This document shows positions 3,443-24,724 of a stretch of DNA of 64,000 bases, one piece after another (position 1 is the stretch's first letter; the number at the start of each line of letters is the position of its first letter). This DNA comes from an uncultured Ectothiorhodospiraceae bacterium (GTDB lineage Bacteria; Pseudomonadota; Gammaproteobacteria; S012-40): positions 4,094 through 68,093 of the forward strand of contig CALZHW010000003.1 in assembly GCA_945787125.1 (NCBI GenBank), written 5' to 3'. The notes under the pieces were generated by a model. That model ran no database searches and was not told the origin of the DNA. It worked only from the letters and a program-made list of their open reading frames with translations. A program made the translations under genes and the position numbers.

Positions 3443-3607
3443 AGCGCTATTAGTAAACGAAATCGCATTCCAAACCTTAGGGTTAATTACATCCTTCCTC
3501 CTCTTGCTTCAAGTCACAATTTTAGTACAAAAATTTGCTTGTTTCCGGTTGTTTTTTATAATGGTTTTTTGTTACTACTAGTAAGACAGGCTCCTAGCCC
3601 AGATAAT

Positions 3608-5749: not shown

Positions 5750-7126
5750 TTAAGCTGGCAAACTAATGCGAAACTCTGTATTTGCATCAGTCGAAGTAAC
5801 AACAATTTTTCCACCATGAGATTCAATAATCGATTTAACGATCGCTAAACCTAATCCCGCGCCTTCACTGCTGCGCTGACGCGATGGATCGATGCGGTAA
5901 AAACGGTCGAAGATTTTTTCAAGGTGGGCGGGCGAGACTAGCGATCCCGGGTTTTGTACAACGATAGTTACGCCTTTTTTATCGCGATTGAGCATTACAT
6001 TTACACAATTATTGGCCGATGTGTGACGAATAGCATTGGAGAGCAGGTTGCTAAGTGCTCGGCGCAACATTAAAGGATCACCTTGTACATGAGCTTGGCC
6101 TTCAAGTATTAACGTCACATGGCTTTCTTCCGCCCAAGCTTCGTAATAATCAAACAGATTACGCACCTCACTTTTTAAGTCAACGTCTTCTATATTGAGC
6201 GAGTTTAATCTATTGTCAGTTTTAGCCAAGAAGAGCATGTCACCAATCATTTGTGCCATACGTTCGTACTCTTCCATGTTGGAATAAAGAATTTCCCGAT
6301 ACTCAGTTGCAGTTCGAGCGTGAGAGAGGGCGACTTGAGTTTGGGTCATTAGGTTAGTAACAGGCGTGCGGAGTTCATGGGCGATGTCAGCAGAGAAATT
6401 TGAAAGTCGATTAAAGGCATCTTCCATACGTTGCAAGAGTGCGTTAAACGACATTGCCAGTGCAGTGAGTTCAGCGGGAACAATGCCGGGGTCGAGGCGG
6501 ATATTTAATTCACTAGCGTTAATTCCGCTGATCTGATCGACCATATGGTGTAATGGCCGATGCCCCTGACGTACGGCAATCCAACTCATTAGCGCCATGA
6601 TTGCAATGCCAACAATAACCATGAGCCAAAGTGTGTGGTGAAAGCTTTCAAGAAACTTTAGGTGAAAATCAATGGCGATGGCAACTACAACAGTGTACGA
6701 GTTATTATCCAGACCGGTGATCTGTTGCACGAATACTCGGTAATTTTGCTCGGCGTGACTCCATGTTTGCAATACCCCCTGATCAAGTTGTATAGATGGC
6801 GGCGTTGGCATTAAAGAAAGATCTGAGCCGGGACTTGCGTAAAAATATTTTCCTGAGGAATCTATAATATGCAGTAATGCACTATGATGCCCGACCAGAA
6901 TATCATTGAAGCGCTGTTCTATACGTACAATATCATCGTTAGACTTTAGCTCGAGCAACGCTTTCTCCACCGCTTGGGTTATCATTTTAAGTTCGTTAAT
7001 ATCACCTGAATCGAAATGACTCTCGATGGATCGCTCAACGATCCATCCGAATGCGAGCAACACAAACATCGCCACGGTGCTAAACCACAGGGTAAGCCGT
7101 AACGTCAGAGAGATAGGGCGTTTCAT
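5750..7126 (-). CDS. Heavy-metal sensor histidine kinase (CusS/CopS family)
   Basis: Two transmembrane segments, a periplasmic sensor, a HAMP domain, the H-box HELRTPVTNL typical of the CusS/CzcS family, and the HATPase motifs. Confidence 0.8.
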   Translation of the reverse strand: MKRPISLTLRLTLWFSTVAMFVLLAFGWIVERSIESHFDSGDINELKMITQAVEKALLELKSNDDIVRIEQRFNDILVGHHSALLHIIDSSGKYFYASPGSDLSLMPTPPSIQLDQGVLQTWSHAEQNYRVFVQQITGLDNNSYTVVVAIAIDFHLKFLESFHHTLWLMVIVGIAIMALMSWIAVRQGHRPLHHMVDQISGINASELNIRLDPGIVPAELTALAMSFNALLQRMEDAFNRLSNFSADIAHELRTPVTNLMTQTQVALSHARTATEYREILYSNMEEYERMAQMIGDMLFLAKTDNRLNSLNIEDVDLKSEVRNLFDYYEAWAEESHVTLILEGQAHVQGDPLMLRRALSNLLSNAIRHTSANNCVNVMLNRDKKGVTIVVQNPGSLVSPAHLEKIFDRFYRIDPSRQRSSEGAGLGLAIVKSIIESHGGKIVVTSTDANTEFRISLPA

Positions 7127-7813
7127 TTATACATCGTTGTCCGGCGTGTCGATCATATAGCCCATACCTCGCACGGTATGAATCAGCTTGAGCGGAAAAT
7201 TGTCGTCAATTTTGCCGCGTAAACGACGAATGGCGACATCAATGACATTTGTGTCACTGTCAAAATTCATGTCCCACACTTGGGAGGCAATAAGGGAGCG
7301 TGGTAATACCTCACCCCGACGGCGAACCAGCAGTTCCAGCAGCGCAAATTCCTTGGCGGTCAAGTGGATGCGACGGCCGCTACGACTGGCGCGGTGCCGC
7401 GCTAAATCTAATTCCAGATCGGCAATACGCAAATTCAACTCGGCAGTGGGCATCGCGCCACGCCGCAACAGGGTGCGCACTCGCGCCAGCAGTTCGGCAA
7501 AAACGAAAGGTTTGACCAGATAATCATCTGCCCCTAGCTCCAACCCTTTTACTCGATCATCCACACTGTCTCGCGCGGTAAGAAAAAGCACAGGCACCTC
7601 TTTACCAGCCTCGCGCAGCGATTTCAAAATACGCCAGCCGTCCACATCAGGTAACATAACATCGAGAATCAGTAGGTCGTAATACTCGGTCATTGCCAGG
7701 TGATGACCGTCAAGTCCGTTGTGCGCGAGATCAACGACAAAACCCGCCTCGCTCAGCCCCTGCTTGAGGTATTCACCCGTTTTAACTTCATCTTCGACAA
7801 TCAATAATTTCAT
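7127..7813 (-). CDS. OmpR-family response regulator (CusR/CopR-like)
   Basis: Receiver domain (DD...D in LILDVMLP, K in LVKPF) plus a winged-helix C-terminus. It is translationally adjacent to the kinase gene. Confidence 0.85.
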
Positions 7814-7891
7814 TCTATGCCTGTTGATTTCACATGACTGGTCTTTTTATAACCTTGGATGACAGTTTAACCCTCAGTAGCTGCCATTATG

Positions 7892-7929
7892 ATGACAACC
7901 ACATTACAAAATTGTAACGTAATCGTCAT
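7892..7929. promoter_or_regulatory. Nested palindrome in the divergent promoter region between the response regulator and the metal-cassette genes; candidate response-regulator (cop/cus-box-like) operator
   Basis: atgacaacc-acaTTACAA-aa-TTGTAAcgtaatc-gtcat. The inner element is a perfect 6-bp inverted repeat with a 2-bp spacer, flanked by an outer tgaca/tgtca inverted repeat. Confidence 0.4.
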
Positions 7930-8012
7930 GCTAGCGACAGCGTTCAGTTTTTACTATTGCAGAACGAGAATCGCGAAGATGATCATAAACAGAGGTAAAA
8001 GGTAAAAGGTAA

Positions 8013-8471
8013 TTGATGAATTTTAATAAACATAACATAATGGCCTGGGTATTTATTGGCATATTGGTGCTTGTTTCAGCAGCTCACGCAGCGGGTGAAC
8101 ACAAAGATGCTCATACATCGGGGCATGATAATTCCACTGCCCAAAGCGGAATGTTTTTGCAGAAAATGACGGTTGATGGCTACGATGTTAGCTTTCACAT
8201 CATGAAAGCGAAAGAGGGCAAAGAGATGGGCGGCAGCCATGACCTCATGCTCAAGGTGGAACTCGGCGGTAAGGCGCTCACTGACATCGTTATGAATACC
8301 AAAGTCGTACTCCCCAATGGCAAAGCCGAAAGCAAAAAAGCCATGAAAATGGGTGATTGGCTAATGGCCGGTTATGACCTGGGGCACCCGGGTAAACATC
8401 AGGTGATGATTCTATTTAAAACCGCCGATGGCAAAAAACACAAGGGTGGGGTTTATTACGAAGACAAATGA
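8013..8471 (+). CDS. Secreted His/Met-rich putative metal-binding protein, uncharacterised family (paralog A1)
   Basis: Signal peptide, a His-rich N-terminus (HKDAHTSGHDNS), and a conserved core FHIMKAK...MKMGDWLMAGYDLGH..KHQ.MILFKTADGKKHKGGVYY. It is about 65% identical to ORF 15185..15655. Confidence 0.6.
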   Translation: MMNFNKHNIMAWVFIGILVLVSAAHAAGEHKDAHTSGHDNSTAQSGMFLQKMTVDGYDVSFHIMKAKEGKEMGGSHDLMLKVELGGKALTDIVMNTKVVLPNGKAESKKAMKMGDWLMAGYDLGHPGKHQVMILFKTADGKKHKGGVYYEDK

Positions 8472-8510
8472 TAAGTTGCTGGGGTATTCATCAATGTAAG
8501 AGGCACAATC

Positions 8511-9092
8511 ATGTCAATCATTAACACGCCTAAAGGACATAAGTTTCCCTGGTACGTCAAACTGTTTTTCTGGAATCAGCAGCGCAAGTACGGCGCGATT
8601 CTAGAACCGGCGCGGCTATGGGGGAGGTCACCCAAAGTATTCGCCACGCTGGCCTTGCTCTATGGCGCTTTTGATCGCAACGACTCACCGTTGGAGCCGT
8701 CATTGCGTACTCTGGTAACGGTACGAGTATCTCAGATTAACTGGTGCCCTTTCTGTGTTGACATCAATTCTGCCACGGCGCTGAAGCGGGGAATCACAGC
8801 TGAGAAACTTACCCTTCTTGCCGATTATGCTACCAGCGATCTTTATAGCGACAAAGAAAAAGCGGCACTTGCCTATGCCGAGGCGATAACCGACAGCAAC
8901 CAACAGCCTACCGAAGAACACTTCGCGACGCTACGCCGCTACTTCAACGACAACGCCATTATCGAACTCACTGGTTTAATCTGCTTTCAGAACATGTCGA
9001 GCAAATTTAACGCTGCTTTAGATGTTAAACCACAGGGCTTTTGCGCTATCGCGCCGCAGCCTGTTATGGATAAACAGAATAAAGAGAATTAA
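8511..9092 (+). CDS. Carboxymuconolactone decarboxylase (CMD/AhpD-like) family protein
   Basis: AhpD-like CxxC motif in VSQINWCPFCVDINSATALKRG, and a size of about 190 aa. Confidence 0.7.
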   Translation: MSIINTPKGHKFPWYVKLFFWNQQRKYGAILEPARLWGRSPKVFATLALLYGAFDRNDSPLEPSLRTLVTVRVSQINWCPFCVDINSATALKRGITAEKLTLLADYATSDLYSDKEKAALAYAEAITDSNQQPTEEHFATLRRYFNDNAIIELTGLICFQNMSSKFNAALDVKPQGFCAIAPQPVMDKQNKEN

Positions 9093-9179
9093 ATGTTTGG
9101 AATAATTCCTAATTGGCACCCAATCTTCATGCATTTTGCTGTTGCGCTGTTTTCGCTGGCGGCCGGATTTTTTAAGGAG
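9093..9179 (+). pseudogene. 28-codon stub of a DUF2231-like membrane protein gene (paralog of 15727..16356), cut off by the efflux operon
   Basis: ATG...MFGIIPNWHPIFMHFAVALFSLAAGFFKE*. About 85% identical to the first 26 aa of ORF 15727 (MIEIIPNWHPIFVHFTVALLSLAAGLF). Homology ends where the AAGGAG RBS and TTG start of the next gene begin. Confidence 0.55.
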
Positions 9180-9187
9180 TAATTAAT

Positions 9188-10489
9188 TTGAATTTTCGAT
9201 CTCGATACTGGTTCAATTCGCTCATACGTGTCTTGTTGATAAGTACACTGATTTTGGGGGTGTCGATCGCGCAGGCATCGGAAGTGCTGACTTTGGACAA
9301 GGCGGTCGCCGAAGTCTTAAGTGCGCATCCTGGTCTGGCGGCTATTGAAGCGCGGGCCAAGGCGCTGGCCACGATTCCAGATCAGGCGGGCGCTCTGCCT
9401 GACCCTAGTTTGTCGGTTAATATCGTCAATCTGCCATTAGATAGTTTATCTTTTAACCAGGAGGGTATGACGCAGTTTCAGGTGGGTATTACACAAGCAC
9501 TGCCATATCCTGGCAAGTTGGCCTTGCGTTCCCAAACTGCTCGGCATGAAGCAGAGGCCGCTAGTGCAGATGTAAAAGAAAAACAGCTGCAACTGGTTCG
9601 TGATGTCAAAACCGTGTGGTGGAACCTCTTCTATCTGGACCGGGCGCTTGAGGTCATTGCCCAAAACCAGATCCTACTGAAGCAGTTCGTCAATGTAGCG
9701 GAGACGCGTTATACGGTCGGTCAGGGCTTGCAACAAGATATTCTGCTGGCGCAATTGGAGTTGTCCAAATTGAGTGACAGCGCTATTCGCGTGCAAAATA
9801 TGCGGGAAAACGAGGTGGTTCGACTGAATATATTGATGGATCGTCCTGTGGCAGAAGCCATCCTACTTCCGGTTGTCGTTGATGAAGCATTGTTGGTGAT
9901 GATGAGTGTGGACGTGTTGCAACAGCGGGTAGAAACAACGCGCCCAAGCCTGGTAGCGCAGATCAAACGTATGGGAGCGGCACGCAGTCGTGTTGATTTG
10001 GCGAAAAAGGATTACGCACCTGATTTTAAAGTGGGCGCAATATATGGCCTGCGTAATGGTAACAACCCCGATGGCAGCGGGCGCGCTGACTTTGGTTCCG
10101 TTATGTTTAGCATGAATCTTCCCCTCTACACCGGTAGCAAGCAGGATCGCGCCGTTGATCAGCGTAATGCTGAGTGGATGCAGCAAAAATACCAGCTGCA
10201 TGATCAACGTAATCAGGTAGCTTCTCAAGTACAGCAGGCCATGATTGACTATCGTCGAGCCGGTGAACGGACACAACTTTTTCAGCAGAAAATTCTTCCT
10301 CAAGCTCGCCAGACCGTAGATGCCATGTTGGCGGGGTATCAGGTTGGCAAGGTTGATTTTTTGGATCTAATTCGCAGCCAAACCACACTTTATGACTATG
10401 AAACCCAATATTGGAAAGCCCTGAGTGGCGCGAATCAGGCTTTAGCTCGATTGATTGCTGCGGTTGGCGAGGAGACTATTTATGAATAA
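9188..10489 (+). CDS. Outer-membrane efflux factor, TolC/CusC/CzcC family
   Basis: Signal peptide and the two-repeat OEP architecture. It is the first gene of a three-gene RND operon with overlapping stop/start codons. Confidence 0.8.
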   Translation: MNFRSRYWFNSLIRVLLISTLILGVSIAQASEVLTLDKAVAEVLSAHPGLAAIEARAKALATIPDQAGALPDPSLSVNIVNLPLDSLSFNQEGMTQFQVGITQALPYPGKLALRSQTARHEAEAASADVKEKQLQLVRDVKTVWWNLFYLDRALEVIAQNQILLKQFVNVAETRYTVGQGLQQDILLAQLELSKLSDSAIRVQNMRENEVVRLNILMDRPVAEAILLPVVVDEALLVMMSVDVLQQRVETTRPSLVAQIKRMGAARSRVDLAKKDYAPDFKVGAIYGLRNGNNPDGSGRADFGSVMFSMNLPLYTGSKQDRAVDQRNAEWMQQKYQLHDQRNQVASQVQQAMIDYRRAGERTQLFQQKILPQARQTVDAMLAGYQVGKVDFLDLIRSQTTLYDYETQYWKALSGANQALARLIAAVGEETIYE

Positions 10490-11957
10490 GAGTACTGTAG
10501 CATTGGTCGTTGTTTTTGCTTTGGGTATTGGCTTTGGTGGAGGCTATTTTCTCTTCAGCCCAAATACCTCAGAGAAAATGGATGCAACGCAGAGCCAATC
10601 AGGCGAACGCAAGGTGCTGTTTTGGCGTAACCCCATGAATCCAGCCATTACCTCGCCGGTTTTCATGCAGGATGACATGGGCATGGATTACATCCCTGTC
10701 TACGCCGATGGAGAGAGGCCCAAAGAAAAAGAGGTGCTCTTTTATCGTAACCCCATGAACCCAGCTATTACCTCACCGGTATTTATGCAGGACGAAATGG
10801 GTATGGATTACATTCCCGTTTATGCCGACGGTGGTGCGGGAGATGAACTCGCTGGCACGGTTACAATTGATCCAGTCACAGTGCAAAATATTGGTGTACG
10901 TACAGCAGTTGCGGAAACCCGTGATTTATCACGGGCACTGAACGGCCTGGGGCGGGTTGATTTCAACGAAGAACGACTGGCCCGTTTGCATCCCAAGACC
11001 TCCGGTTGGATTGAACAATTAATGATTGATGAAACTGGCAAGCGAGTGAATAAAGACACCATCCTGCTTGGCATCTATTCCCCCGACTTGGTGGCTGCGC
11101 AGCAGGAGTATTTGGTGGCGCTTATTAACTGGGAAGCAGTGCGTGACAGCGCTGCTTCCCAAATGAACAAAAGTGCCAAAACCGTCCTGGAAAGCGCCCG
11201 TGAGCGCTTGCACTTATTTGATGTGGCGGAACATCAGATCAAAGAACTGGAAAAAAACCGAAAAATCAAAAAACAACTCCACATCCACTCTCCCTTTGAA
11301 GGTCAGATCATGCACATTGGTGCGAGGGAAGGGCAATATGTCACACCCAAAGACGAGCTTTATCTCATTGCTGACCTAAGTCGCATCTGGGTCAATGTGG
11401 ATATTTTTGAAGATGAATTAAGCTGGTTGAAGTTGGGTAATCGTGCCGAGATGCGCGTGCGTGCGCAACCGGGTCGAACCTATGAAGGCAAAATTACCTT
11501 TATTCATCCGATATTAAATCGTAAAAGCCGCTCAGTACAGGTACGTTTGGAATTCGACAACCGCGATCATTCACTCAAACCAGGCATGTTTGCCAACGTT
11601 ACACTCTATGTCGACCCTCAACCCAGTGCCGTGGTGGTGCCCAGCGAAGCGATTGTGCGTTCAGGCAGTCGCGAACAAGTGTTTGTCGTGCGTGAACCAG
11701 GCAAGTTTGAACCCCGTGAAGTGACACTGGGTGTGAGTGCTGAAGGTTTGACTCAAATCTTATCTGGTGTTGAGGCGGGAGAGCAGGTGGTGACCTCCAG
11801 CCAGTTCCTCATCGACTCCGAATCCAAGCTGCGTGAAGCCACGGCCAAGATGATGAAAGCGATGGCGGGTGAGGGTGACTCCGCTGGTATAGATATGTCG
11901 GACATGGAGATGGATGACATGGATATGGACGATGCATTGATGGAGGATCAACCATGA
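10482..11957 (+). CDS. RND periplasmic adaptor (membrane fusion protein, CusB/CzcB family) with a duplicated Met-rich N-terminal motif and a Met/Asp-rich C-terminal tail
   Basis: HlyD-like beta-barrel and lipoyl-like regions. The 33-aa motif LF(W/Y)RNPMNPAITSPVFMQD(D/E)MGMDYIPVYADG occurs twice. The C-terminus is MSDMEMDDMDMDD. The likely start, MNKSTV at 10482, overlaps the upstream stop. Confidence 0.8.
   Translation: MNKSTVALVVVFALGIGFGGGYFLFSPNTSEKMDATQSQSGERKVLFWRNPMNPAITSPVFMQDDMGMDYIPVYADGERPKEKEVLFYRNPMNPAITSPVFMQDEMGMDYIPVYADGGAGDELAGTVTIDPVTVQNIGVRTAVAETRDLSRALNGLGRVDFNEERLARLHPKTSGWIEQLMIDETGKRVNKDTILLGIYSPDLVAAQQEYLVALINWEAVRDSAASQMNKSAKTVLESARERLHLFDVAEHQIKELEKNRKIKKQLHIHSPFEGQIMHIGAREGQYVTPKDELYLIADLSRIWVNVDIFEDELSWLKLGNRAEMRVRAQPGRTYEGKITFIHPILNRKSRSVQVRLEFDNRDHSLKPGMFANVTLYVDPQPSAVVVPSEAIVRSGSREQVFVVREPGKFEPREVTLGVSAEGLTQILSGVEAGEQVVTSSQFLIDSESKLREATAKMMKAMAGEGDSAGIDMSDMEMDDMDMDDALMEDQP
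10611..10833 (+). repeat. Intragenic tandem duplication (about 102 bp x2, period 120 bp) encoding the duplicated Met-rich motif
   Basis: 10611..10712 and 10731..10833 are about 80% identical and in frame. Confidence 0.8.
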
Positions 11958-14900
11958 TCACCAGCATCATTGACGCCTCCCTGCGTAATCGCTTCCTGAT
12001 TATCATCGCCACTATTATAATCGTGGCGGCAGGGCTGTGGTCGATGAAAAATACACCGCTGGATGCGATTCCTGATCTCTCAGATGTGCAGGTCATCGTC
12101 TTCACCGAATACCCTGGTCAAGCACCCCAAGTGGTTGAAGATCAAGTCACCTATCCGTTGACTACGGCCATGCTGGCCGTGCCCAACGCCAAGGTAGTAC
12201 GCGGTTATTCCTTTTTTGGTTTCTCCTTCGTCTACATCATCTTTGACGACGGTACCGACATGTACTGGGCGCGTTCGCGGGTTCTGGAGTATCTCAACTA
12301 CGTCAGCGGTCGTCTGCCTGATGGCTTAACACCTTCATTAGGGCCGGATGCCACCGGAGTAGGCTGGATCTATGAATATGCCCTGGTCGATAGAACCGGC
12401 AATACCGACCTGGCAGAATTGCGTTCTATTCAAGACTGGTATCTGCGTTATCCCTTACAGACGGTAGAAGGGGTCGCCGAAGTGGCGTCCGTTGGCGGTT
12501 ATGTCAAACAGTATCAGGTAGAAGTCGATCCCAATGCGTTGCTGGCCTACAGCATTCCGCTGTCGAAAGTGAAGCATGCCATTCAGCGCTCTAACAACGA
12601 TGTCGGTGGTAAGTTGGTGGAGATGGCCGAGACTGAATACATGGTGCGCGGCCTGGGTTATATTCAGTCTATTGATGACCTCAATGTGATACCGGTTGGC
12701 GTCGATGAAAATGGCACGCCGATTCGTTTGCAGGATGTGGCGCATGTGCACTTGGGCCCTGAACTGCGCCGTGGCGTGGCGGAATTCAATGGCGAAGGCG
12801 AAGTGGCGGGCGGTGTGGTGATTATGCGCTACGGTGAAAATGCCATGGCGGTCATTGAACGAGTGCGCGCCAAACTGGAAACGTTAAAACCCGGCTTGCC
12901 TGAAGGGGTAGAGATTGTGCCAGTCTATGATCGGGGCGACCTCATTACACGGGCGGTGGAAAACCTTGAAGAGAAATTGATCGAAGAGATCATCGTCGTT
13001 AGCATCATCTGTATCTTGTTTTTGCTGCATGCCCGTTCGGCTTTAGTGGCAATTATCTCCCTGCCTATCGGCATCTTGCTCGCTTTTACGATCATGAAAT
13101 GGCAGGGCATCAATGCCAACATCATGTCCTTAGGGGGGATTGCGATTGCCATTGGTGCCATGGTGGATGGGGCGATTGTGATGATCGAAAACGCGCACAA
13201 ACACCTGGAGCAAATGGTTAAAGAGAAAGGCCGAGAACTAACTTCGCCCGAACGATGGCAAGCTGTCTCAGAAGCATCCCGAGAAGTCGGCCCGGCACTG
13301 TTCTTTTCGCTACTGATTATCACCGTCTCCTTCCTGCCAGTGTTTACCTTACAAGCACAGGAAGGGCGACTTTTCGCGCCACTCGCCTTTACAAAAACCT
13401 ATGCTATGGCTGCGGCGGCTATCTTGGCGATTACCTTAGTACCGGTGCTAATGGGTTATTTTATTCGCGGCAAGATTCCGCCTGAAGCCAAAAATCCGGT
13501 CAACCGTTTTCTCCATTTCATTCATGTACCGACACTGGATCTTGCCATTCGCTGGCGTTGGGTGACATTAACGTTGGCCCTGCTGTTGTTAGTTGCAACG
13601 GCCTATCCACTCAGCAAGCTGGGCAGTGAATTTATGCCGCCGCTGAATGAGGGTGACATTCTTTATATGCCGACTACCTACCCTGGTGTTTCTATCACCA
13701 AGGCCAAGGAACTCTTGCAGCAGACAGACAAGATCATTAAAACGTTTCCCGAGGTGCAGAGTGTTTTCGGCAAGGTGGGGCGAGCCGAAACCGCTACTGA
13801 TCCGGCGCCGCTGGCAATGCTCGAAACCACGATTCGACTCAAACCCAAAGACGAGTGGCCTGACCCGAAAAAGACAGTGAAAGAACTGATGGACGAGATG
13901 GACGCGGCGATTAAATTTCCGGGGCTAGCCAACGCTTGGACCATGCCTATCAAGACCCGCATCGATATGCTTTCCACCGGTATTAAAACACCCATCGGCA
14001 TCAAGGTTAGCGGGCCTGATTTAAAGGTATTGGAGGAGGTTGGTAATGATATCGAGCAGGCCTTGAAACAACTACCCGATACGCTCTCTGCTTTTGCGGA
14101 TAAAGCAGCCGGTGGTTACTACCTCGACTTCGATATCAACCGCGAAGAGGCGTCCCGTTACGGGCTCACCACTGGCGATGTACAGGATGTGATTCAGACC
14201 GCCATCGGTGGCATGAACGTGACTCAGACCGTTGAAGGCTTGGAGCGTTATCCGATCAACTTGCGTTATCCCCGCGAGCTACGCGATAACCTCGATAGTC
14301 TAAAGCGAGTATTGATTCCCACACCCACCGGCGCGCAAATTCCTCTGTCGCTGGTAGCTGATCTGGAACTGCGTCGTGGTCCACCAGGCATCAAGAGCGA
14401 AAACTCTCGCCCCAATGCTTGGGTTTATGTGGATATCAAAACTTCGGACATTGGCGGTTATGTGGAACAGGCCAAAAAGGTGGTGGCCAGCCAGGTCAAA
14501 ATCCCGCCCGGCTACAACCTCGTGTGGTCCGGTCAGTTCGAGTACATGGAGCGGGCGGCCGAACGTTTACGTATCGTCGTGCCCGCTACCTTATTGGTGA
14601 TTTTTCTGTTGCTCTACTTCAACTTCCGCAACATCACTGCGCCGTTGGTCGTCATGCTCTCCATTCCATTTGGTTTGATCGGTGGCTTTTGGTTGATCTA
14701 TTTGTTGGGCTACAATCTCTCGGTTGCTGTGGTGGTCGGGTTTATCGCCCTGGCAGGAGTCGCGGCGGAGATTGGCGTTTTGGTGCTTACCTTCATCGAT
14801 CAAGAATTGGCTCGGCGTCGTAAAGAAAAAGGTCACTTAGACGCGGCTGACATCATGTCCGCTGTGCATCGCGGCACATCAGCACGGGTTCGTCCCATCG

Positions 14901-15148
14901 CCATGACGGCCACTGCAATTATCGCTGGTCTGCTACCCATCATGTGGGGCACTGGCACAGGATCTGAAGTGATGCAACGCATCGCTGCACCAATGGTGGG
15001 TGGTATGGTCACAGTCACGATTCTCTGCCTGCTGGTGTTACCAGTAATCTATGGCTTGGTTCTTCAAGTCCAGGAAAAATTTAAACAGGGTCATAACGAC
15101 CAGGAGACAGCTTCGCATAATGGGTTGGGCGAAACTGGTACTCGATAA
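11954..15148 (+). CDS. Heavy-metal efflux RND transporter (HME-RND, CusA/CzcA family)
   Basis: 1064 aa, 12 TM segments with two large periplasmic loops, and the characteristic AIVMIENAHK and GG..VM motifs of CusA/CzcA pumps. Confidence 0.9.
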   Translation: MITSIIDASLRNRFLIIIATIIIVAAGLWSMKNTPLDAIPDLSDVQVIVFTEYPGQAPQVVEDQVTYPLTTAMLAVPNAKVVRGYSFFGFSFVYIIFDDGTDMYWARSRVLEYLNYVSGRLPDGLTPSLGPDATGVGWIYEYALVDRTGNTDLAELRSIQDWYLRYPLQTVEGVAEVASVGGYVKQYQVEVDPNALLAYSIPLSKVKHAIQRSNNDVGGKLVEMAETEYMVRGLGYIQSIDDLNVIPVGVDENGTPIRLQDVAHVHLGPELRRGVAEFNGEGEVAGGVVIMRYGENAMAVIERVRAKLETLKPGLPEGVEIVPVYDRGDLITRAVENLEEKLIEEIIVVSIICILFLLHARSALVAIISLPIGILLAFTIMKWQGINANIMSLGGIAIAIGAMVDGAIVMIENAHKHLEQMVKEKGRELTSPERWQAVSEASREVGPALFFSLLIITVSFLPVFTLQAQEGRLFAPLAFTKTYAMAAAAILAITLVPVLMGYFIRGKIPPEAKNPVNRFLHFIHVPTLDLAIRWRWVTLTLALLLLVATAYPLSKLGSEFMPPLNEGDILYMPTTYPGVSITKAKELLQQTDKIIKTFPEVQSVFGKVGRAETATDPAPLAMLETTIRLKPKDEWPDPKKTVKELMDEMDAAIKFPGLANAWTMPIKTRIDMLSTGIKTPIGIKVSGPDLKVLEEVGNDIEQALKQLPDTLSAFADKAAGGYYLDFDINREEASRYGLTTGDVQDVIQTAIGGMNVTQTVEGLERYPINLRYPRELRDNLDSLKRVLIPTPTGAQIPLSLVADLELRRGPPGIKSENSRPNAWVYVDIKTSDIGGYVEQAKKVVASQVKIPPGYNLVWSGQFEYMERAAERLRIVVPATLLVIFLLLYFNFRNITAPLVVMLSIPFGLIGGFWLIYLLGYNLSVAVVVGFIALAGVAAEIGVLVLTFIDQELARRRKEKGHLDAADIMSAVHRGTSARVRPIAMTATAIIAGLLPIMWGTGTGSEVMQRIAAPMVGGMVTVTILCLLVLPVIYGLVLQVQEKFKQGHNDQETASHNGLGETGTR

Positions 15149-15184
15149 TTAATCATTTAGCCCAAAGTTTGTAAGGATTAAGCA

Positions 15185-15655
15185 ATGAGAAAAGTAGTAA
15201 AACCTTTATCAGCGATCACCTTCGTCGCATTGTTAGCGGCAACAGGATCTTTGTACGCATCAGGTGATCACTCACAGGGTCACGATGATCATAATAAGTC
15301 TGAAATGAAACATGATAATCACGGCTCTACCATGGGAGAAATGTTTCTAAAGAAAACGGAGATCGATGGTTACGATGTTAGTTTTCATATCATGAAAGCC
15401 AAACCTGGCAAACAGATGGGTGGCACCCATGACTTTATGGTTAAAGTCGAAAAAGATGGAAAGGCACTTTCTAACATTGTTATGAATACGAAAGTTAAAC
15501 ACCCAAACGGCAAGTCGGAAAGTAAAAAAGCCATGAAGATGGGGGATTGGCTGATGGCAGGTTATGACTTGGGGCACGAAGGTAAACACCAGTTAATGAT
15601 TTTGTTTAAGACCGCTGATGGTAAGAAACACAAAGGCGGTGTTTATTATCCATAG
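15185..15655 (+). CDS. Secreted His/Met-rich putative metal-binding protein, uncharacterised family (paralog A2)
   Basis: Signal peptide, His-rich N-terminus (GDHSQGHDDHNKSEMKHDNHGS), and the same conserved core as ORF 8013. Confidence 0.6.
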   Translation: MRKVVKPLSAITFVALLAATGSLYASGDHSQGHDDHNKSEMKHDNHGSTMGEMFLKKTEIDGYDVSFHIMKAKPGKQMGGTHDFMVKVEKDGKALSNIVMNTKVKHPNGKSESKKAMKMGDWLMAGYDLGHEGKHQLMILFKTADGKKHKGGVYYP

Positions 15656-15678
15656 TCCCTTAAAAACAGGACTGAATT

Positions 15679-15726
15679 ATGTCAATGATTATGACATCTC
15701 TTAACACAAGTAATGAGGAACATTAA
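15679..15726 (+). pseudogene. 15-codon remnant of a CMD-family gene start (paralog of 8511..9092)
   Basis: ATGTCAATGATTATGACATCTCTTAACAC... gives MSMIMTSLNTSNEEH*. The first codons match ATGTCAATCATTAACAC (MSIINT) of the intact CMD gene. It occupies the same position, between the A-paralog and the membrane protein. Confidence 0.4.
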
Positions 15727-16356
15727 ATGATTGAAATAATTCCCAATTGGCACCCGATTTTCGTGCACTTTACTGTCGCATTATTATCGCTGGCAGCCGG
15801 ACTTTTTGTCGTAACACCGTTTATTAAATCTCCGTTGAAAGAACAGTGGATCATCGTTGCCCGGTGGACGTTGTGGTTCGGCGCGGGAATCACCATCATT
15901 ACGGGACTCACCGGACTTTATGCATATAACACAGTTGATCACGATTCTCCGTCGCACCTGGCAATGACGGAACATCGCAACTGGGCGATTGTGACAATCT
16001 CGCTTTTTCTAGCGCTTGCTGCGTGGTCTATAGTCTGGGTACGTAAAAACAAAACGTTGGGAACAGCGTTTGTGGTGTGTATTGCGATCGCAGGCGCTGT
16101 CTTGGGCTCTACCGCTTGGCACGGTGGCGAAGTGGTCTATCGTTATGGCATTGGCGTGATGTCGTTACCGAAAGTAGAGGGTGACGGACATAACCACGCC
16201 CATGGCGAAAGTAGTGATCATAAAGATGCTTCTAAAACAGGTATGGAAGAACGTCACAATAATCACAGCGAAAGGGAACATCAAGATGAAATGAAGATGG
16301 ATTTCAGTGACATGGATACGATGAAAAATGATGATGGTCATGATCATGACCATTAA
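15727..16356 (+). CDS. DUF2231-like integral membrane protein with a His-rich C-terminal tail
   Basis: Four predicted TM helices, an N-terminal NWHPIFVHF motif, and a C-terminal HNHAHGESSDH...DDGHDHDH tail. Confidence 0.55.
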   Translation: MIEIIPNWHPIFVHFTVALLSLAAGLFVVTPFIKSPLKEQWIIVARWTLWFGAGITIITGLTGLYAYNTVDHDSPSHLAMTEHRNWAIVTISLFLALAAWSIVWVRKNKTLGTAFVVCIAIAGAVLGSTAWHGGEVVYRYGIGVMSLPKVEGDGHNHAHGESSDHKDASKTGMEERHNNHSEREHQDEMKMDFSDMDTMKNDDGHDHDH

Positions 16357-16498
16357 AAATTTTGTTGAATTAACCTGAGATCACTAATCATTGATATGTA
16401 CGATATTAGAGGCGATTTAAAGAGGTGTAAGGACGAGACTTTCCTTTGCTTGTTCGGGAGGTGAAGCAAATATAATGAATTAATGAAGGAGGCAGGTC

Positions 16499-18943
16499 AT
16501 GAAAACCGATCCGGTTTGTGGCATGGACGTGGCGGATGATACTCGATATCACACGAATCACAATGAGCAGATGTTTTACTTTTGCAGTGAGCATTGTTTG
16601 CATAAATTTGAGACTGAGCCAGAAAAATATGTGCAGACCGAGTCGCTCACCGATCCAGTGTGCGGTATGAATGTCACTGAGGAGTCGGTGCATCACACTG
16701 AGCATAGGGGCAAAACACATTATTTTTGCAGTACAGGCTGTTTGAATAAGTTTTTGGCATCATCAGAACAATATCTTAGGGATGTTCACTCTCAACACGC
16801 CGTTCATGATAATAAGTCGGTGGATAAGTCCGCGATCTACACTTGCCCCATGCATCCTGAAATCGAACAGCAAGGCCCGGGCAGTTGTCCTAAGTGCGGT
16901 ATGGCGCTGGAACCGCGCACGGTCGAAGCCGATGAGGATACCAGCGAACTGGATGACATGACACGCCGTTTCTGGGTCAGCTCTCTACTGGCGATCCCGG
17001 TTTTTTTTAGCGCTATGGCTGCCGAGTTTTGGCCAGAGTTCATCAATGGCCTAATTTCACCGGTCGCACGGCAATGGGGCGAGCTCATTTTATCCGCTCC
17101 TGTAGTGTGGTGGGGTGGCTGGGTTTTCTTTCAACGCGGCTGGCAATCTATTGTCACTCGCAATCTTAATATGTTCACGTTAATAGCTGTCGGTGTTGGT
17201 ATTGCCTGGATTTACAGTCTTATTGCAGTACTGCTGCCGGGTATATTTCCGCCCGCTGTCTTTAGTGAGGCAGGAGTAGTTCCGGTCTATTTTGAAGCTG
17301 CCGCTGTGATTACCGCTCTCGTCCTGTTAGGGCAAGTAATGGAGCTGCGCGCTCGTAGCCAAACCAATGCTGCCATTAAACTTCTGCTTGGCCTGGCCCC
17401 AAAAGCAGCGCGTATTGTTCGTGAAGATGGCACGGAGGAAGATATTCCGTTGGAGCATGTTCAAGTTGGAGATCACTTACGTATTCGTCCCGGCGAAAAA
17501 ATACCTGTGGATGGTAATGTTATCAATGGTGAAAGTAATGTTGACGAATCCATGGTGACCGGTGAGCCAATTCCTGTCGCCAAGTCAGTGGGCGAGCGAC
17601 TAATCGGCGCTACCGTCAACGGTACAGGTGGCCTGTTGATGCGCGCCGAGAAAGTGGGTGCCGATACGTTGCTCGCACAGATCGTCAAAATGGTTGCTGA
17701 TGCGCAGCGCTCCCGCGCACCGATTCAAAAATTGGTGGATATTGTTGCCGGTTACTTCGTACCGACAGTGGTGGTCATCGCCGTTATTACCTTCATTGTT
17801 TGGAGTTTGTTTGGGCCGGAACCCGCTATTGCCTATGCCGTGATTAACGCCGTGGCGGTATTGATTATTGCCTGCCCTTGTGCGCTAGGTTTAGCCACTC
17901 CCATGTCCATCATGGTTGGTACCGGCAAAGGAGCGATGATGGGGGTGTTGATCAAAAATGCGGAGGCATTAGAGATTATGCAAAAGGTGGATACTCTGGT
18001 TGTGGACAAAACCGGTACGCTTACCGAAGGCAAACCAAAGCTGGTCTCGGTGTTTGCCAATGAAGATTTTAAAGAGAATGACAATCTGCGTCTGGCTGCC
18101 AGTTTAGAGCGAGCTAGCGAGCATCCGCTGGCGGAAGCGATTGTGAAAGGCGCTGAGGAACGTGGAATAGATTTGGCTCAAGCTCAAAACTTTCAATCAG
18201 TAACTGGCAAGGGTGTTACCGGAAATGTAGACGGAAGGGAAGTGGCCCTGGGAAATCTAAAATTACTTGAGAGTCTCGGTATTGATGCGGGTGGTTTGCC
18301 GCAACAAGCAGACAATCAACGTGCCGAAGGTCAGACCGTGATGTTGCTGGCGGTTGATGGTAAAGCCGCGGGTTTGATCGGTGTCGCCGATCCAATTAAA
18401 GAGAGCACACCGGAGGCGATCCGTAATTTACATGAGGAAGGTATCCGCGTGGTCATGCTCACCGGGGATAGTCGCAAGACCGCCGAAGCAGTCGCTGCTA
18501 AACTGGGTATTGATCAAGTACACGCCGAAGTGTTGCCAGAACAAAAAGCTGAAGTAGTAAAACAACTTCAGGCTGAAGGATTCATCGTCGCCATGGCGGG
18601 TGATGGTATCAATGATGCGCCTGCTTTGGCCCAGGCCCATGTGGGCATTGCCATGGGTACTGGTACTGATGTAGCCATGGAAAGCGCAGGTGTAACATTG
18701 GTCAAGGGTGATTTGCGAGGCATCGTACGTGCTGTGCGATTATCGCGCGCCACTATGCGCAACATTCGCCAAAACTTGTTCTTTGCCTTTATCTATAACG
18801 CCGCCGGAGTGCCAATAGCGGCGGGGGTGCTTTATCCCGTCTTCGGATTACTACTCTCTCCCATGATAGCGGCAGCAGCCATGAGCTTCAGTTCGGTATC
18901 AGTGATCACCAATGCCTTACGGTTGAGGCGAGTTAAATTATGA
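16499..18943 (+). CDS. copA: Copper(I)-translocating P1B-type ATPase with an N-terminus of two TRASH/YHS domains plus a CPMHPE..CPKCGM domain
   Basis: TRASH/YHS motifs CGMDV...FCSEHC and CGMNV...FCSTGC, then [22 protein letters not shown], then the CPC transduction motif, [15 protein letters not shown] and the HP motif. 814 aa. Confidence 0.9.
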
Positions 18944-18961: not shown

Positions 18962-19648
18962 ATGCAACAAATGCATGGTGATACTGGGTATGCCTATGGT
19001 ATGTGGGTAGTAGCGGCTTTTAACATCGGCATTTTTCTGTTTTTCATTTTAAGTTTTCTCAAGCCGCGGGGCAGCGAGGAATGGCGCAGCATGGGGGTAG
19101 TAACTGCCTTTCTGGTGGCACTCTTCGCCGAGATGTATGGTTTTCCTTTAACGATTTATCTGCTTTCTGGCTGGTTAGGCGATGCCTACCCAGTGTTACA
19201 ACCCTTCAACCATAAATACGGTCACCTTTGGGTAGTGGTGTTTGGTGGCTCAACCCTGGCTTGGGCAATAGTGATGGGTTTGAGTCTGGGGTTTATGATA
19301 ATGGGCTATATGCTACTCTCGAAGGGCTGGACGCAGATCCACGCTGCTCAAGGTGGATTGGTTTCTAACGGAATCTATGCTTATGTGCGTCATCCTCAAT
19401 ACACAGGATTGTTCCTCGTTATTATCGGTTTTCTAATTCAGTGGCCCACGTTGCTCACCGTGATAATGGCTCCCATTCTTCTTTATGCTTATACACATTT
19501 AGCACGAGTCGAAGAAAAGCGTGCGGAGAAAGTATTTGGTGACGCATATATTAAATACGCAGACAAAACGCCTGCTTTTTTTCCACCACTAAATCAATGG
19601 CACGCATTTCTAACACTAGAGGTAGACAAATTAGATGAGAGAAAATAA
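18962..19648 (+). CDS. Isoprenylcysteine carboxyl methyltransferase (ICMT/PEMT) family membrane protein
   Basis: Multi-TM protein with the NGIYAYVRHPQYTG motif of the ICMT family. Confidence 0.65.
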   Translation: MQQMHGDTGYAYGMWVVAAFNIGIFLFFILSFLKPRGSEEWRSMGVVTAFLVALFAEMYGFPLTIYLLSGWLGDAYPVLQPFNHKYGHLWVVVFGGSTLAWAIVMGLSLGFMIMGYMLLSKGWTQIHAAQGGLVSNGIYAYVRHPQYTGLFLVIIGFLIQWPTLLTVIMAPILLYAYTHLARVEEKRAEKVFGDAYIKYADKTPAFFPPLNQWHAFLTLEVDKLDERK

Positions 19649-19915
19649 AAAACGAGCTGACTAATTGTTGTTAGGATATTTTAACAATGAAATTTGGGTG
19701 TGGTTCAAAACAGAGTAACATATCTCGAGCCTCGAATGAGCCACTAATTGCTTTATTATTAGTCTATTTATCTGCAATTCAGCCGATTTCTAGCATTATT
19801 ATCTTTGGTATACTCGTAGTTTATTTATACCGTATCAACTAGAGGGCGACTGTTTTGAATGGTGATAGAAACTGTGTTTCTCGGTGTTTTAGAACGAAAA
19901 TTATGCGTTTGAGTT

Positions 19916-19943
19916 GAGATGAGATGAGATGAGATGAGATGAT
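19916..19943. repeat. Pentanucleotide microsatellite (GAGAT)x5
   Basis: gagatgagatgagatgagatgagatgat, 50 bp outside the left transposon end. Confidence 0.8.
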
Positions 19944-19991
19944 AAATTTAATACTCCGACAATTAATTCACGAGCCTTTTCGTACAACAAT

Positions 19992-20030
19992 GGGTCCCCA
20001 ACAATATAGGGGTGTAAATGCCACACTTTG
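19992..20030. repeat. Left terminal inverted repeat of the Tn3-family element
   Basis: Matches the reverse complement of 25590..25629 except for one missing G at the outer tip. Confidence 0.8.
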
Positions 20031-20100
20031 CAATCTAACGTATTGTTTATAATAACAATACTTCAGGACTTTTTTATCGAACTCATGCATAGTAAGTCAC

Positions 20101-23163: not shown

Positions 23164-23266
23164 ATTAATTATCCTTAATTAAAAATTGACGGCAGAATGA
23201 TCTAATAAAGAGCCGTTAGACCTCGAATACGATGGGGAATCATGATACTGTATTGTTATCAAATAT

Positions 23267-23302
23267 CAATATGTCCGATAATAGTTATTATCGGACATAT
23301 TG
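23267..23302. promoter_or_regulatory. Perfect 17-bp inverted repeat with a 2-bp spacer between tnpA and the recombinase gene; candidate core recombination (res/IRS) site
   Basis: caatatgtccgataata-gt-tattatcggacatattg, located 50 bp upstream of the tyrosine recombinase start. Confidence 0.45.
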
Positions 23303-23350
23303 AATACGGCATATTTTCCGCTATAATTAGCATATTATGGAAAGCCTAGA

Positions 23351-24613: not shown

Positions 24614-24724
24614 AATGTGACGTAATTCAATAATATATGATATTTTCACATATTTCCTTGCGAAGGATTTCTTATCTAATTAAGGATTATTGACTTTTAC
24701 CCGATAACCTCCCATAATGGGAGC

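Follow-up and report, generated by a model that had tools for sequence, protein, structure and literature searches.

Why is a copper pump flanked by two incomplete versions of one accessory cassette, each holding the gene that the other lacks? The question is raised by a copper/silver efflux operon of an uncultured marine bacterium, contained in a 64-kb stretch of DNA ("the window") from a metagenome-assembled genome. A preliminary description proposed that a cassette encoding a periplasmic protein (A), a CMD/AhpD-like protein and a DUF2231 membrane protein had been duplicated around the pump genes, and that each copy had then lost a different gene. Comparison with related loci leads to another answer: a second, distantly related partial accessory cassette has been spliced ahead of the pump, and this upstream piece most likely derives from a diverged locus and did not arise by local duplication.

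Components of the cluster

All open reading frames of the preliminary description were recovered at the coordinates it gave, and its central observation, that two homologous A-CMD-DUF2231 cassettes with complementary intact genes flank the pump, is sound (Table 1). The start of A1 had been placed at 8013, but ATG 8016 is likelier, since its product occurs in public annotation and that of TTG-8013 is absent there. The regulatory pair cusS-cusR (5750..7813) is divergent from the cluster, a position kept in relatives, and the copper box lies within a promoter region (7863-7944) common to them. Judged by sequence, cusC, cusB and cusA (9188..15148) are predicted to form a heavy-metal RND efflux pump of the Cu(I)/Ag(I) type. 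CMD, for which AhpD/CMD homologs were found in the PDB, would by fold and gene context be an AhpD-like CxxC redox protein, and DUF2231 a His-rich four-helix membrane protein; in the intact DUF2231, four TM helices are accompanied by invariant His residues, and the tail is His-rich.

Table 1. Features of the copper/silver cluster, in window coordinates
Feature	Position	Strand	Remarks
cusS	5750-7126	-	Two-component copper sensor; Pfam CusS/HisKA/HATPase
cusR	7127-7813	-	Pfam Response_reg/Trans_reg_C
Copper box	7904..7917	.	CusR/CopR-type palindrome, TTACAAAATTGTAA; sole one in the window
A1	8016..8471	+	Periplasmic beta-sandwich protein; CrdA-like A family, divergent copy
CMD/AhpD-like gene, intact	8511..9092	+	CPFC motif; Pfam PF02627, 52.8 bits (cut-off 23)
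DUF2231 5' stub	9093..9182	+	29 codons plus stop; DUF2231 homology 9088 to 9173
Native cusC leader remnant	9174..9187	+	AAGGAGTAATTAAT, Shine-Dalgarno plus spacer
cusC	9188-10489	+	Pfam OEP; TTG start
cusB	10455 or 10482 to 11957	+	Pfam HlyD_D23
cusA	11954-15148	+	Pfam ACR_tran; TIGR00914, 1310 bits (cut-off 701)
A2	15185..15655	+	Resident A gene of the pump module; 58/58 invariant residues kept; CrdA-like fold
15-codon mini-ORF	15679..15726	+	CMD start remnant fused to native DUF2231 leader
DUF2231 membrane protein, intact	15727..16356	+	Pfam PF09990, 49 bits (cut-off 26.4)
copA	16499..18943	+	P1B-type ATPase, two YHS domains plus HMBD; conserved neighbor downstream of the cassette

Arrangement of related loci

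The usual layout among about 150 related loci is cusRS / cusCBA-A / CMD-(YHS)-(P-II)-DUF2231-copA, with a single cassette downstream of the pump; A lies within 800 nt after cusA in 75 of 94 non-redundant A loci. Relatives carry one copper box (box1) ahead of cusCBA-A and another (box2) ahead of CMD-(YHS)-(P-II)-DUF2231-copA. Compared with the single box of the window, close relatives thus have two, and the identical 14-mer occurs in the cusR-cusC gap and again in the A-to-CMD spacer of L001, L099, L003, L020 and L013. A pump-less variant (L090, L022, L046, L100) is arranged as cusRS / box - A - CMD - (P-II) - DUF2231 - copA. The gene order A-CMD-DUF2231, which the preliminary description expected to find in other genomes, is present in 22 related loci, two of them with a CMD remnant only. 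In 14 loci cusC follows cusR, and cassette genes occupy the gap between them in 0 of 14 relatives with a visible junction and in 0 of about 150 loci altogether.

These patterns also bear on the suggestion that the three proteins serve as metal-handling accessories of the pump. A link to the copper system is supported by the conserved neighborhood and the copper boxes, but CMD and DUF2231 both occur with cusRS and copA in loci that have no pump (L090, L022, L100), and they are therefore not pump-specific accessories. CMD, moreover, has decayed independently in L001, L022 and L044 and is absent from many other loci that have no second copy in the stretch examined, so that its loss here need not come from redundancy.

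The join upstream of cusC

Window positions 9088-9173 align with 15722-15807 at 82.6% nucleotide identity over 86 nt (E=8e-21), a significant match to the intact paralog that confirms the short ORF at 9093 as a truncated DUF2231 5' end. The ORF has 29 codons, not the 28 first reported, and it matches the intact N-terminus at 75% of amino acids (21/28) and 79-83% of nucleotides, not about 85%. Among DUF2231 5' ends compared by nucleotide sequence, the closest to it belongs to the window itself, at those same 79-83%; L093 reaches 78% (over 104 nt) and the other loci 74% or less.

The breakpoint is sharp. DUF2231 homology runs to 9173 and homology to the type-I cusC leader takes over from 9174/9175 (that to L001 resumes at 9175), with the conserved cusC Shine-Dalgarno and leader next and TTG at 9188; the stub is indeed cut exactly at the cusC ribosome binding site, as the preliminary description held. 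An alignment of 11 type-I loci gives the leader consensus GAGGAGTCATTAAT-TTG; apart from the stretch at 9174..9187, the promoter and leader that cusC usually has are missing here. Because the truncation is a base-exact join to the cusC leader, a rearrangement breakpoint is a simpler explanation than later decay, and the stub is probably a dead fragment as well as a recombination breakpoint. Three of 15 family-invariant positions are altered in it (V13M, T16A, L26F; none in the intact copy), and so is the near-invariant E3 (E3G), which the intact copy keeps. No IS element, repeat or target-site duplication was found at the join. Just ahead of the stub, mapping against L093 shows that the last ~7 codons of the intact CMD (9072-9092) come from what was DUF2231 leader, now joined directly to CMD; YHS and P-II genes, which relatives have at this place, are missing.

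The deletion downstream of the pump

The downstream module resembles most closely that of L093, a 4.2-kb contig that leaves the sequence upstream of its cusC outside: amino acid identities are 94% for cusA, 88% for A and 91% for DUF2231, compared with 94-95, 76-81 and 88-89% for L101, L095 and L099. The intact DUF2231 appears from this to be native to the pump module. At exactly the place of the mini-ORF, L093 has an intact CMD; 50 nt of the window stand in place of 1,684 nt in L093 (copper-box spacer, CMD, YHS and P-II genes), and the resident CMD appears to have disappeared in a deletion that, measured against that locus, removed about 1.6 kb. Mapped on L093, the deletions in the two copies have right-hand ends within ~2 nt of each other (3892 and 3890).

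In the 15-codon ORF, CMD ancestry is limited to the first ~7 codons (about 15675-15699, MSMIMTS); the last ~8 belong to conserved non-coding DUF2231 leader (15702-15726) homologous to L090, L088 and L093. Taken alone, the mini-ORF matches the CMD start weakly (15/17 nt, E=0.28). Under a position-weight model built from 16 CMD starts, all from other genomes, ATG 15679 ranks second of the 2,444 ATGs in the window, after the real CMD start.

Ancestry of the two cassettes

A1 and A2 share 65% of amino acids (BLASTP E=1e-66; range 65-68%) and 79% of nucleotides over 309 nt (E=6e-73), and the best identity of A1 to any sequence is at most 73%. In neighbor-joining trees of these short proteins, A2 clusters with those A genes that come 35-60 nt behind cusA, and A1 with a set none of which adjoins cusA (75% bootstrap). 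CMDs from relatives of the pump module share 88-95% identity with one another and 83-85% with the window's intact CMD, which branches outside their group (low bootstrap for its exact placement). Current trees thus point, with limited support, to a position of A1 and the window's CMD outside the A2/L093/L001 clade. Since both genes fall outside the lineage of cusA, A2 and DUF2231, the upstream piece most likely did not arise by duplication in place. A1 is changed at 2 of 58 family-invariant residues, one of them a His, and given these changes part of the A1-A2 distance could reflect acceleration after duplication.

Alternative explanations

We consider it reasonably likely that the cluster is a CusRS-controlled copper/silver resistance locus whose layout arose when two diverged versions of one locus were merged, with partial deletion later. 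A duplication within the lineage, with the copies flanking the pump and each losing a different gene through redundancy, would likewise yield collinear, homologous cassettes that together retain CMD and DUF2231 intact just once each, and the altered invariant residues of A1 fit relaxed selection on a duplicate. The stub's nearest DUF2231, by a slight margin, is that of the window, and the deletion endpoints by the DUF2231 leader almost coincide in both copies; either might be a sign of common ancestry or of gene conversion between the copies. Such a duplication is nonetheless unlikely. A2 is far closer to the A of L093 than to A1, the two A genes lie in different clades and are not sisters, and the intact CMD stands outside the group expected of a local copy. 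A second cassette at cusR-cusC is found in none of about 150 loci and in none of eight close relatives with a visible junction (L001, L089, L099, L137, L101, L003, L011, L106); an ancient duplication, its second copy lost in all sampled relatives, would require many independent and complete losses. The TAAATG abutment seen in both copies is a conserved leader feature, also present in L090, L088 and L093, and not a shared derived character. Neither the proposed duplication nor the reciprocal losses that were to follow it are supported, the DUF2231 cut being more simply a breakpoint and CMD loss recurring in loci with no second copy in the stretch examined.

It is doubtful that the short ORFs were selected as translated leader or coupling peptides for cusC (with its weak TTG) and DUF2231 once their own promoters and leaders were lost, although this is compatible with a merger and both can hold. 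The stub ORF begins where CMD stops (TAAATG), ends 5 nt ahead of the cusC TTG and contains the cusC Shine-Dalgarno in its last two codons; the mini-ORF still has the start site of CMD and terminates at the ATG of DUF2231; and the window has lost the boxes for copper control that in relatives stand separately ahead of cusC and of CMD/DUF2231. Each leftover mini-ORF ends beside the start of the next gene, and because the last two codons of the stub are the cusC Shine-Dalgarno, such ORFs may, on sequence grounds, still be translated and couple translation. Selection for that role is at odds with a stub altered at invariant positions and unique to this genome, hence with no conservation signal; a stop-like triplet stands just ahead of the DUF2231 ATG in relatives even without a preceding ORF, and a search for RNA structure in the stub was negative (z=+1.84). 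Far less probable still is a chimeric contig, assembled or binned from two strains or species with different versions of the locus. The window does derive from a metagenome-assembled genome, and breaks in the assembly graph near the cassette are suggested by an independent contig, L083, which begins 16 nt ahead of the stub and runs out within copA. L083, however, is from a second assembly (those showing this layout apparently all belong to one project) and has the CMD-end/stub/cusC junction and the entire cusCBA-A2-miniORF-DUF2231 stretch at 100% identity. A1 is present on three contigs of 50-200 kb, the Shine-Dalgarno and reading-frame layout at the junction look functional, and the longest exact word common to both cassettes is 14 nt, leaving nothing for k-mer graphs to mis-join.

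Protein A and comparison with known systems

Protein A has no Pfam or NCBIfam match. The best match of its predicted core is CrdA (9ll2; E=1e-5, TM 0.72 normalised to target), described as the periplasmic copper chaperone of CrdAB-CzcBA (PMC9182242), which together with gene context suggests that A is a periplasmic Cu/Ag-binding protein in a CrdA/CusF role for the pump. Like CrdA of Helicobacter pylori CrdRS/CrdAB-CzcBA (PDB 9ll2, 9ll4), it is a small secreted beta-sandwich protein beside an RND copper pump under two-component control. Sequence identity is only 15-16%, however, and CrdA lacks His altogether and relies on a Met-rich loop, whereas invariant His residues abound in A, whose N-terminal linker is His-rich as well; crdA precedes crdB, whereas A follows cusA.

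With Escherichia coli cusRS/cusCFBA the cluster shares a divergent two-component regulator beside OMF, MFP and HME-RND pump, a palindromic copper box in the divergent promoter, and a CusA that is the best solved-structure (PDB) match of the cusA product, with the Met573/Met623/Met672 triad conserved. Unlike that system it has no cusF, protein A following cusA instead; it additionally includes CMD, DUF2231 and copA; and its pump lacks a promoter and leader of its own, being placed behind A1-CMD-stub.

Mosaic metal-resistance islands, such as the cop/cus/czc clusters of Cupriavidus or Pseudomonas ICEs, are built by recombination of modules. Here too, module presence and order vary around a conserved core, gene remnants sit at module joins, and a Tn3-family transposase and a toxin-antitoxin pair lie nearby. 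The present case differs in the bare join described above and in that the merged modules are diverged versions of the same locus, with reciprocal gene remnants as the result. As in duplication-degeneration-complementation, two homologous multi-gene units each retain the part missing from the other, but most likely the units here did not come from duplication in this lineage; one loss is probably the breakpoint itself, and the other, that of CMD, recurs in genomes with no second copy in the stretch examined.

A proposed route to the present layout

The head of the operon (promoter - A1 - CMD - first ~28 DUF2231 codons) would have come from a distantly related copy of the pump-less type, joined to position -14 of cusC through what was presumably illegitimate recombination. 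This could have happened by deletion between two neighboring loci or by incoming DNA replacing the cusC leader; identities of cusS, cusR and copA discriminate neither the donor lineage nor the direction of the event. The DUF2231 stub would be the scar at the breakpoint. Behind the pump, CMD would have been lost from the resident cassette down to 7 codons fused to the DUF2231 leader, along with the second copper box, YHS and P-II genes that L093 has. The outcome may be a single long operon in which one copper box drives A1-CMD-stub-cusCBA-A2-miniORF-DUF2231, possibly on into copA, and which would contain two A paralogs, one working CMD and one working DUF2231. The cluster is not a new kind of system; it is a case that shows recombination rebuilding resistance operons.

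A Cus-type efflux operon and its surroundings

Features of the copper cluster are collected below. Every open reading frame named in the preliminary description was found where it had been placed.

Features of the copper cluster in window positions, with the copper boxes of related loci in the coordinates of those loci
Feature	Position	Strand	Remark
cusS and cusR	5750-7813	minus	divergent from the cluster
A1	8013/8016-8471	plus	ORF
CMD/AhpD-like gene	8511-9092	plus	ORF
Stub, 29-codon ORF	9093-9182	plus	ORF
cusC	9188-10489	plus	ORF
cusB	to 11957	plus	ORF
cusA	11954-15148	plus	ORF
A2	15185-15655	plus	ORF
Mini-ORF, 15 codons	15679-15726	plus	ORF
DUF2231, intact	15727-16356	plus	ORF
copA	16499-18943	plus	P1B-ATPase with YHS/HMBD
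Copper boxes, TTACAAAATTGTAA	window 7904; L001 3936 and 10593; L099 3151 and 9839; L003 3945 and 13128; L093 2259		

The product of cusA is an RND permease of the CusA/CzcA heavy-metal subfamily (TIGR00914, 1310 bits against a cut-off of 701; PF00873, E=1.9e-254), and its best PDB match is E. coli CusA (1319 bits). The three-methionine site is kept: in a HMMER alignment with 3t51_A (chain numbering offset 7), all three Met residues (M573, M623, and M672 in the E. coli structure) align with Met. The pump operon also encodes a cognate membrane-fusion protein, a CusB-type adaptor (HlyD_D23, E=1.6e-74; TIGR01730, 161 bits, cut-off 94.9), and a cognate outer-membrane factor, CusC, in which the OEP domain is matched twice (E=2e-48); the pump genes overlap or abut. 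These features place the predicted pump in the HME-RND CusCBA-type Cu(I)/Ag(I) efflux class. No cusF was found of the kind present in E. coli cusCFBA: cusC and cusB overlap with no ORF between them, and none of the eight cluster proteins scanned matches a CusF-like family. CusF is not universal among Cus systems, so that a missing cusF does not exclude Cus membership.

The N-terminus of CusB carries a tandem Met-rich repeat of ~33 residues in two copies, VLF(W/Y)RNPMNPAITSPVFMQD(D/E)MGMDYIPVYADG, encoded at 10612-10711 and 10732-10828; cross-matching BLAST hits reveal the same duplication in the related loci L001, L003, and L011. A search of a plasmid collection returned 98 nt of cusA as its sole match. 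On the 3' side of copA (~18971-25400) lie a PEMT/ICMT-like methyltransferase gene, which likewise follows copA in the pump-less locus L090, a minus-strand transposase of the Tn3 family (~20101-23163), and genes for a HigB toxin and its partner; with this transposase and toxin pair downstream, the copper cluster adjoins mobile DNA.

Related loci: usual order and recurrent decay

Loci for comparison were fetched through protein A (80 loci), for A1-like proteins (further loci), and through CMD (59 metagenome loci), and all were annotated with the proteins of the window. Their common order is cusS(-) cusR(-) / cusC cusB cusA - A - (CMD) - DUF2231 - copA, with A at most 800 nt after cusA in 75 of the 94 non-redundant A loci. 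The order A-CMD-DUF2231 occurs in 22 loci (two with a CMD remnant only), A-DUF2231 in 24, and A-copA in 11; cusC lies next to cusR in 14. Where the pump is missing, cusR leads directly to A (L090, L022, and L046) or to CMD (L100), the full order in L090 being cusRS / A-CMD-P-II-DUF2231-MerR-x-copA. Among the ~150 related loci, A or CMD between cusR and cusC was found in none; the window is the sole case in this set, and the cusR-cusC junction is ordinary in its close relatives wherever it is visible (L001, L089, L099, L137, L101, L003, L011, and L106). Small YHS/TRASH-domain and P-II-family genes are variably present between CMD and DUF2231 (~3025-3510 and ~3525-3850 in L093, the closest relative of the downstream module; 3567-3893 in L090), and both are missing from both window cassettes.

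Loss of CMD is, as the gene remnants read, recurrent, and the remnants in other genomes are independent. In L001, 25 codons are left (10763-10840), followed by an intact YHS gene and a frameshifted P-II gene (10869-11560); in L022, a start remnant, MSVTTTPK, persists at ~3504 within a 363-nt gap; in L044, ~30 codons survive (10398-10487). None of these three has a second CMD in the stretch examined, and redundancy is therefore not required for loss of the gene. Right after a cusA 95% identical to that of the window, L088 (4940-5050) and L089 (7249-7359) keep the 3' end of an A2-type gene, a remnant of 36 residues at 81% identity; glycosyltransferase and CTP-transferase genes come next, and then an intact A1-like gene, CMD, and DUF2231. 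To judge from such A2-type remnants, the copper locus is clearly prone to reshuffling.

The two remnants and the junctions

The stub region (9088-9173) aligns with 15722-15807 at 82.6% DNA identity (E=8e-21). It had been described as 28 codons with about 85% identity to the N-terminus of the intact DUF2231 protein; the homology stands, while the figures become 29 codons and 21 of 28 residues. The stub is changed at three positions that are invariant in 27 foreign DUF2231 homologs (V13M, T16A, and L26F) and at the near-invariant E3 (E3G), whereas the intact window DUF2231 is changed at none of the four, which fits a dead fragment.

The CMD remnant in the mini-ORF is weak when taken alone (15/17 nt, E=0.28). 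When all 2,444 ATGs in the window are scored with a weight matrix trained solely on CMD starts from other genomes (n=16), ATG 15679 takes second place, behind the true CMD start, and L093 has an intact CMD exactly at the position of the remnant. Only the first ~7 codons of the mini-ORF (MSMIMTS against the consensus MSIITT[S/P]) are CMD-derived; what remains is the conserved non-coding DUF2231 leader AATGAGGAnnATTAnATG, also present in L090, L088, and L093. The abutment "TAAATG" was considered as a derived character shared by both copies and set aside, since L090, L088, L093, and L001 share this leader, their ATG being preceded by TAG or TAA.

Upstream of cusC, type-I loci have the consensus ...GAGGAGTCATTAAT-TTG, and the window has GGATTTTTT/AAGGAGTAATTAAT-TTG (the slash marks the join). 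DUF2231 homology ends at 9173, and the L001 cusC leader can be aligned from 9175 on; the truncation of DUF2231 is thus the join itself. In the upstream copy, CMD is joined directly to the DUF2231 leader at 9072-9074, without the YHS and P-II genes of L093. In the downstream copy, the window has 50 nt (15652-15701) where L093 has 1,684 nt made up of spacer, CMD, YHS gene, and P-II gene. A search for repeats and mobile-element scars at the edges of the inserted segment found none. The promoter region at 7863-7944 is conserved in both locus types and hence marks neither the left boundary nor the direction of the event.

Merger, duplication, or misassembly

The preliminary description envisioned an A-CMD-DUF2231 cassette duplicated around the pump, each copy then losing a different gene. 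Part of this holds: the A-CMD-membrane protein order is present in relatives, the homology of the stub persists on reexamination, and each unit does show a different loss, with an intact CMD and truncated DUF2231 upstream and a CMD remnant and intact DUF2231 downstream. The affinities of the genes speak against duplication within the lineage. A2 is 88% identical to its counterpart in L093 versus 65-68% to A1, the two A proteins fall in separate clades, the window CMD lies outside the group formed by those of the pump module's relatives, and the layout is absent from the ~150 loci. Identities to the downstream module are 94% for cusA, 88% for A, and 91% for DUF2231 in L093; 94-95%, 76-81%, and 88-89% in L101, L095, L099, and L137; and 95%, 83%, and 77% in L001. 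A1 is at most 73% identical to anything. In a neighbor-joining tree of 93 A proteins, all of them short, A1 belongs to an eight-member clade (75% bootstrap) whose members never adjoin cusA, and A2 sits among the A genes that lie 35-60 nt after cusA. CMD shows a like pattern: among the pump module's relatives its pairwise identities are 88-95%, while the window CMD reaches 83-85% with each of these and branches outside their group in a tree that is likewise neighbor-joining on short proteins. A copy made within this lineage should place A1 and CMD nearer to A2, L093, and L095 than those are to each other; both are farther, and we therefore take the upstream cassette to stem from a more distant locus version.

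We consider it probable, from these comparisons, that two diverged versions of one copper-resistance locus merged and that deletion then produced a single-promoter operon with reciprocal gene remnants. Under such a sequence of events, the breakpoint of the merger would be preserved as the 29-codon stub, and the later deletion would have taken out the redundant gene along with an internal promoter. Duplication in the lineage, or an ancient one, followed by complementary loss is an unlikely account, although three observations lean its way: the two changes at invariant residues in A1 (F to L and H to L) make some acceleration possible; the stub is marginally nearest to the window's own DUF2231; and the deletion endpoints beside the DUF2231 leader are ~2 nt apart in the two copies (L093 positions 3892 and 3890), which gives room for shared ancestry or gene conversion. 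An assembly artefact is very improbable. The window sequence is found on the metagenome-assembled genome GCA_945787865.1 (contig CALZJZ010000003.1); L083, a contig from another assembly, covers 9077-16806 at 100% identity with the stub-cusC join included; and three contigs, 50-200 kb long, carry A1. With no exact word above 14 nt common to both cassettes, mis-joining in a k-mer assembly is implausible.

The first 80 loci had hinted (21% bootstrap) that the intact DUF2231 might be a mosaic or of the A1 lineage; the metagenome relatives overturned this (91% identity in L093, 88-89% in L101, L095, and L099). Identity of flanking genes does not tell donor from recipient: cusS (64-71%), cusR (87-92%), and copA (~74-82%) are comparably related to loci of both types. 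Nor did GC and GC3 of the modules show a discriminating difference.

Regulation

In L001, L099, L003, L020, and L013, the copper box, a CusR/CopR-type palindrome, is present twice, once between cusR and cusC and once in the spacer from A to CMD; the spacer box is also present in L093, L095, L096, and L006, and pump-less loci have a box between cusR and A or CMD. The sole box in the 64-kb window is at 7904-7917, upstream of A1. The second box in close relatives implies that CMD-(YHS)-(P-II)-DUF2231 would be a separate copper-regulated unit there; the window has lost this box.

The cusC leader of the window is reduced to a Shine-Dalgarno sequence, no intergenic gap from A1 to DUF2231 exceeds 39 nt, and no convincing terminator was found within the cluster. 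Most simply, A1 through DUF2231 would form a single copper-inducible operon, which perhaps extends to copA. The stub ORF begins at the CMD stop and leaves 5 nt before the TTG of cusC, and the mini-ORF runs up to the ATG of DUF2231; either short ORF may couple translation to the gene behind it. A terminator-like hairpin at 9146-9163 in the stub was rejected as an attenuator or terminator because it folds no better than shuffled sequences (z=+1.84).

Proteins of the cassette

BLASTP gives 65% identity between A1 and A2 (E=1e-66), and their genes agree at 79% of positions over 309 nt; neither protein has a Pfam or NCBIfam match, even at E<=10. The AlphaFold model of A has a beta-sandwich core (pLDDT >90), for which the best solved Foldseek match is Helicobacter pylori CrdA (9ll2_A, E=1.1e-5, TM 0.72 normalised to the target; 9ll4_A, E=7e-5); the CrdA matches comprise apo and Ag-bound forms, and FetP/P19, PmoD, and CopC follow with lower scores. 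According to PMC9182242, CrdA serves the CrdAB-CzcBA pump as a Met-rich copper chaperone in the periplasm. However, identity to CrdA in the structural alignment is only 15-16%, no sequence-level homology was detected, and the CrdA motif MMxEMPGMxxMxEM (PMC9182242) is missing from the A sequences. Protein A is thus best called CrdA-like in fold and context; it can be likened to CrdA or CusF in role, but belongs to neither family. Invariant His and Met residues, which accompany a His-rich linker, and the location of the A gene directly behind cusA (75 of 94 loci) suggest that A may bind Cu(I)/Ag(I) and pass the metal to the pump.

In A1, Leu replaces both F84 and H106 (A2 numbering), residues that are invariant in A2 and 23 foreign homologs. 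This His may be a metal ligand, so that A1 may have diverged in function or be in decay. Nor is the window alone in having several A copies at one locus: in Zetaproteobacteria, L060, L069, L071, L080, and L045 each have two or three diverged A paralogs downstream, and the first four of these have two cusA in tandem. A1-like genes also occur away from any pump (L084/L085, 10001-10462; L086/L087, 7254-10462), one alone beside a Peptidase_M90 gene and another after a multicopper oxidase and copB, downstream of cusRS.

CMD is, by profile and motif, an AhpD-like CxxC protein (PF02627, 52.8 bits, cut-off 23; TIGR00778, the AhpD core, 34.5 bits, cut-off 27.8), with the AhpD-type motif as CPFC (NWCPFCVD) and the PDB homologs 7xw1 and 6ohi at E~1e-14. 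The intact DUF2231 protein (PF09990, 49.0 bits, cut-off 26.4) is modeled with four TM helices and a disordered His-rich tail and has invariant His residues; no solved or similar structure was found for it (best Foldseek E=0.09). The DNA for its His/Asp-rich C-terminus (16332-16355) forms a near-perfect palindrome, TGATGGTCATGATCATGACCATTA, with an A/T-rich run behind it, and scores as terminator-like on both strands. A literature search on DUF2231, or on CMD within cus loci, found nothing relevant. Both proteins had been proposed as accessories of the pump; they occur with cusRS and copA in loci without it and so are not pump-specific.

Wider meaning

As genome evolution the rearrangement is ordinary, but it can be seen with unusual clarity and provides a clean, base-resolved example of how a metal-resistance operon is rebuilt. 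It also carries a caution: paired gene remnants should not be taken as in-place duplication and reciprocal loss before relatives are checked. Current understanding of copper efflux is unchanged by these results.

The part most deserving of follow-up is the A-CMD-DUF2231 set. A conserved, unstudied group of genes (CrdA-like A, AhpD-like CMD, and DUF2231, often with YHS and P-II) is tied to cusCBA, copA, and CusR boxes across ~150 loci of uncultured marine bacteria, and this comparative set offers testable roles for one Pfam-less protein family and one DUF. Tentatively, A, CMD, and DUF2231 could make up a copper-handling module, so far uncharacterised, with wide occurrence among sulfur-oxidising marine Gammaproteobacteria and Zetaproteobacteria, whose CMD-DUF2231 part is normally under a CusR-type box of its own in relatives. 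In it, A would replace CusF as the periplasmic metal donor of the pump, and CMD and DUF2231 would act as a redox/metal relay across the inner membrane, with CopA and not the pump as partner. If so, the window would show two CusR-controlled units consolidating into one operon after the merger of diverged loci.
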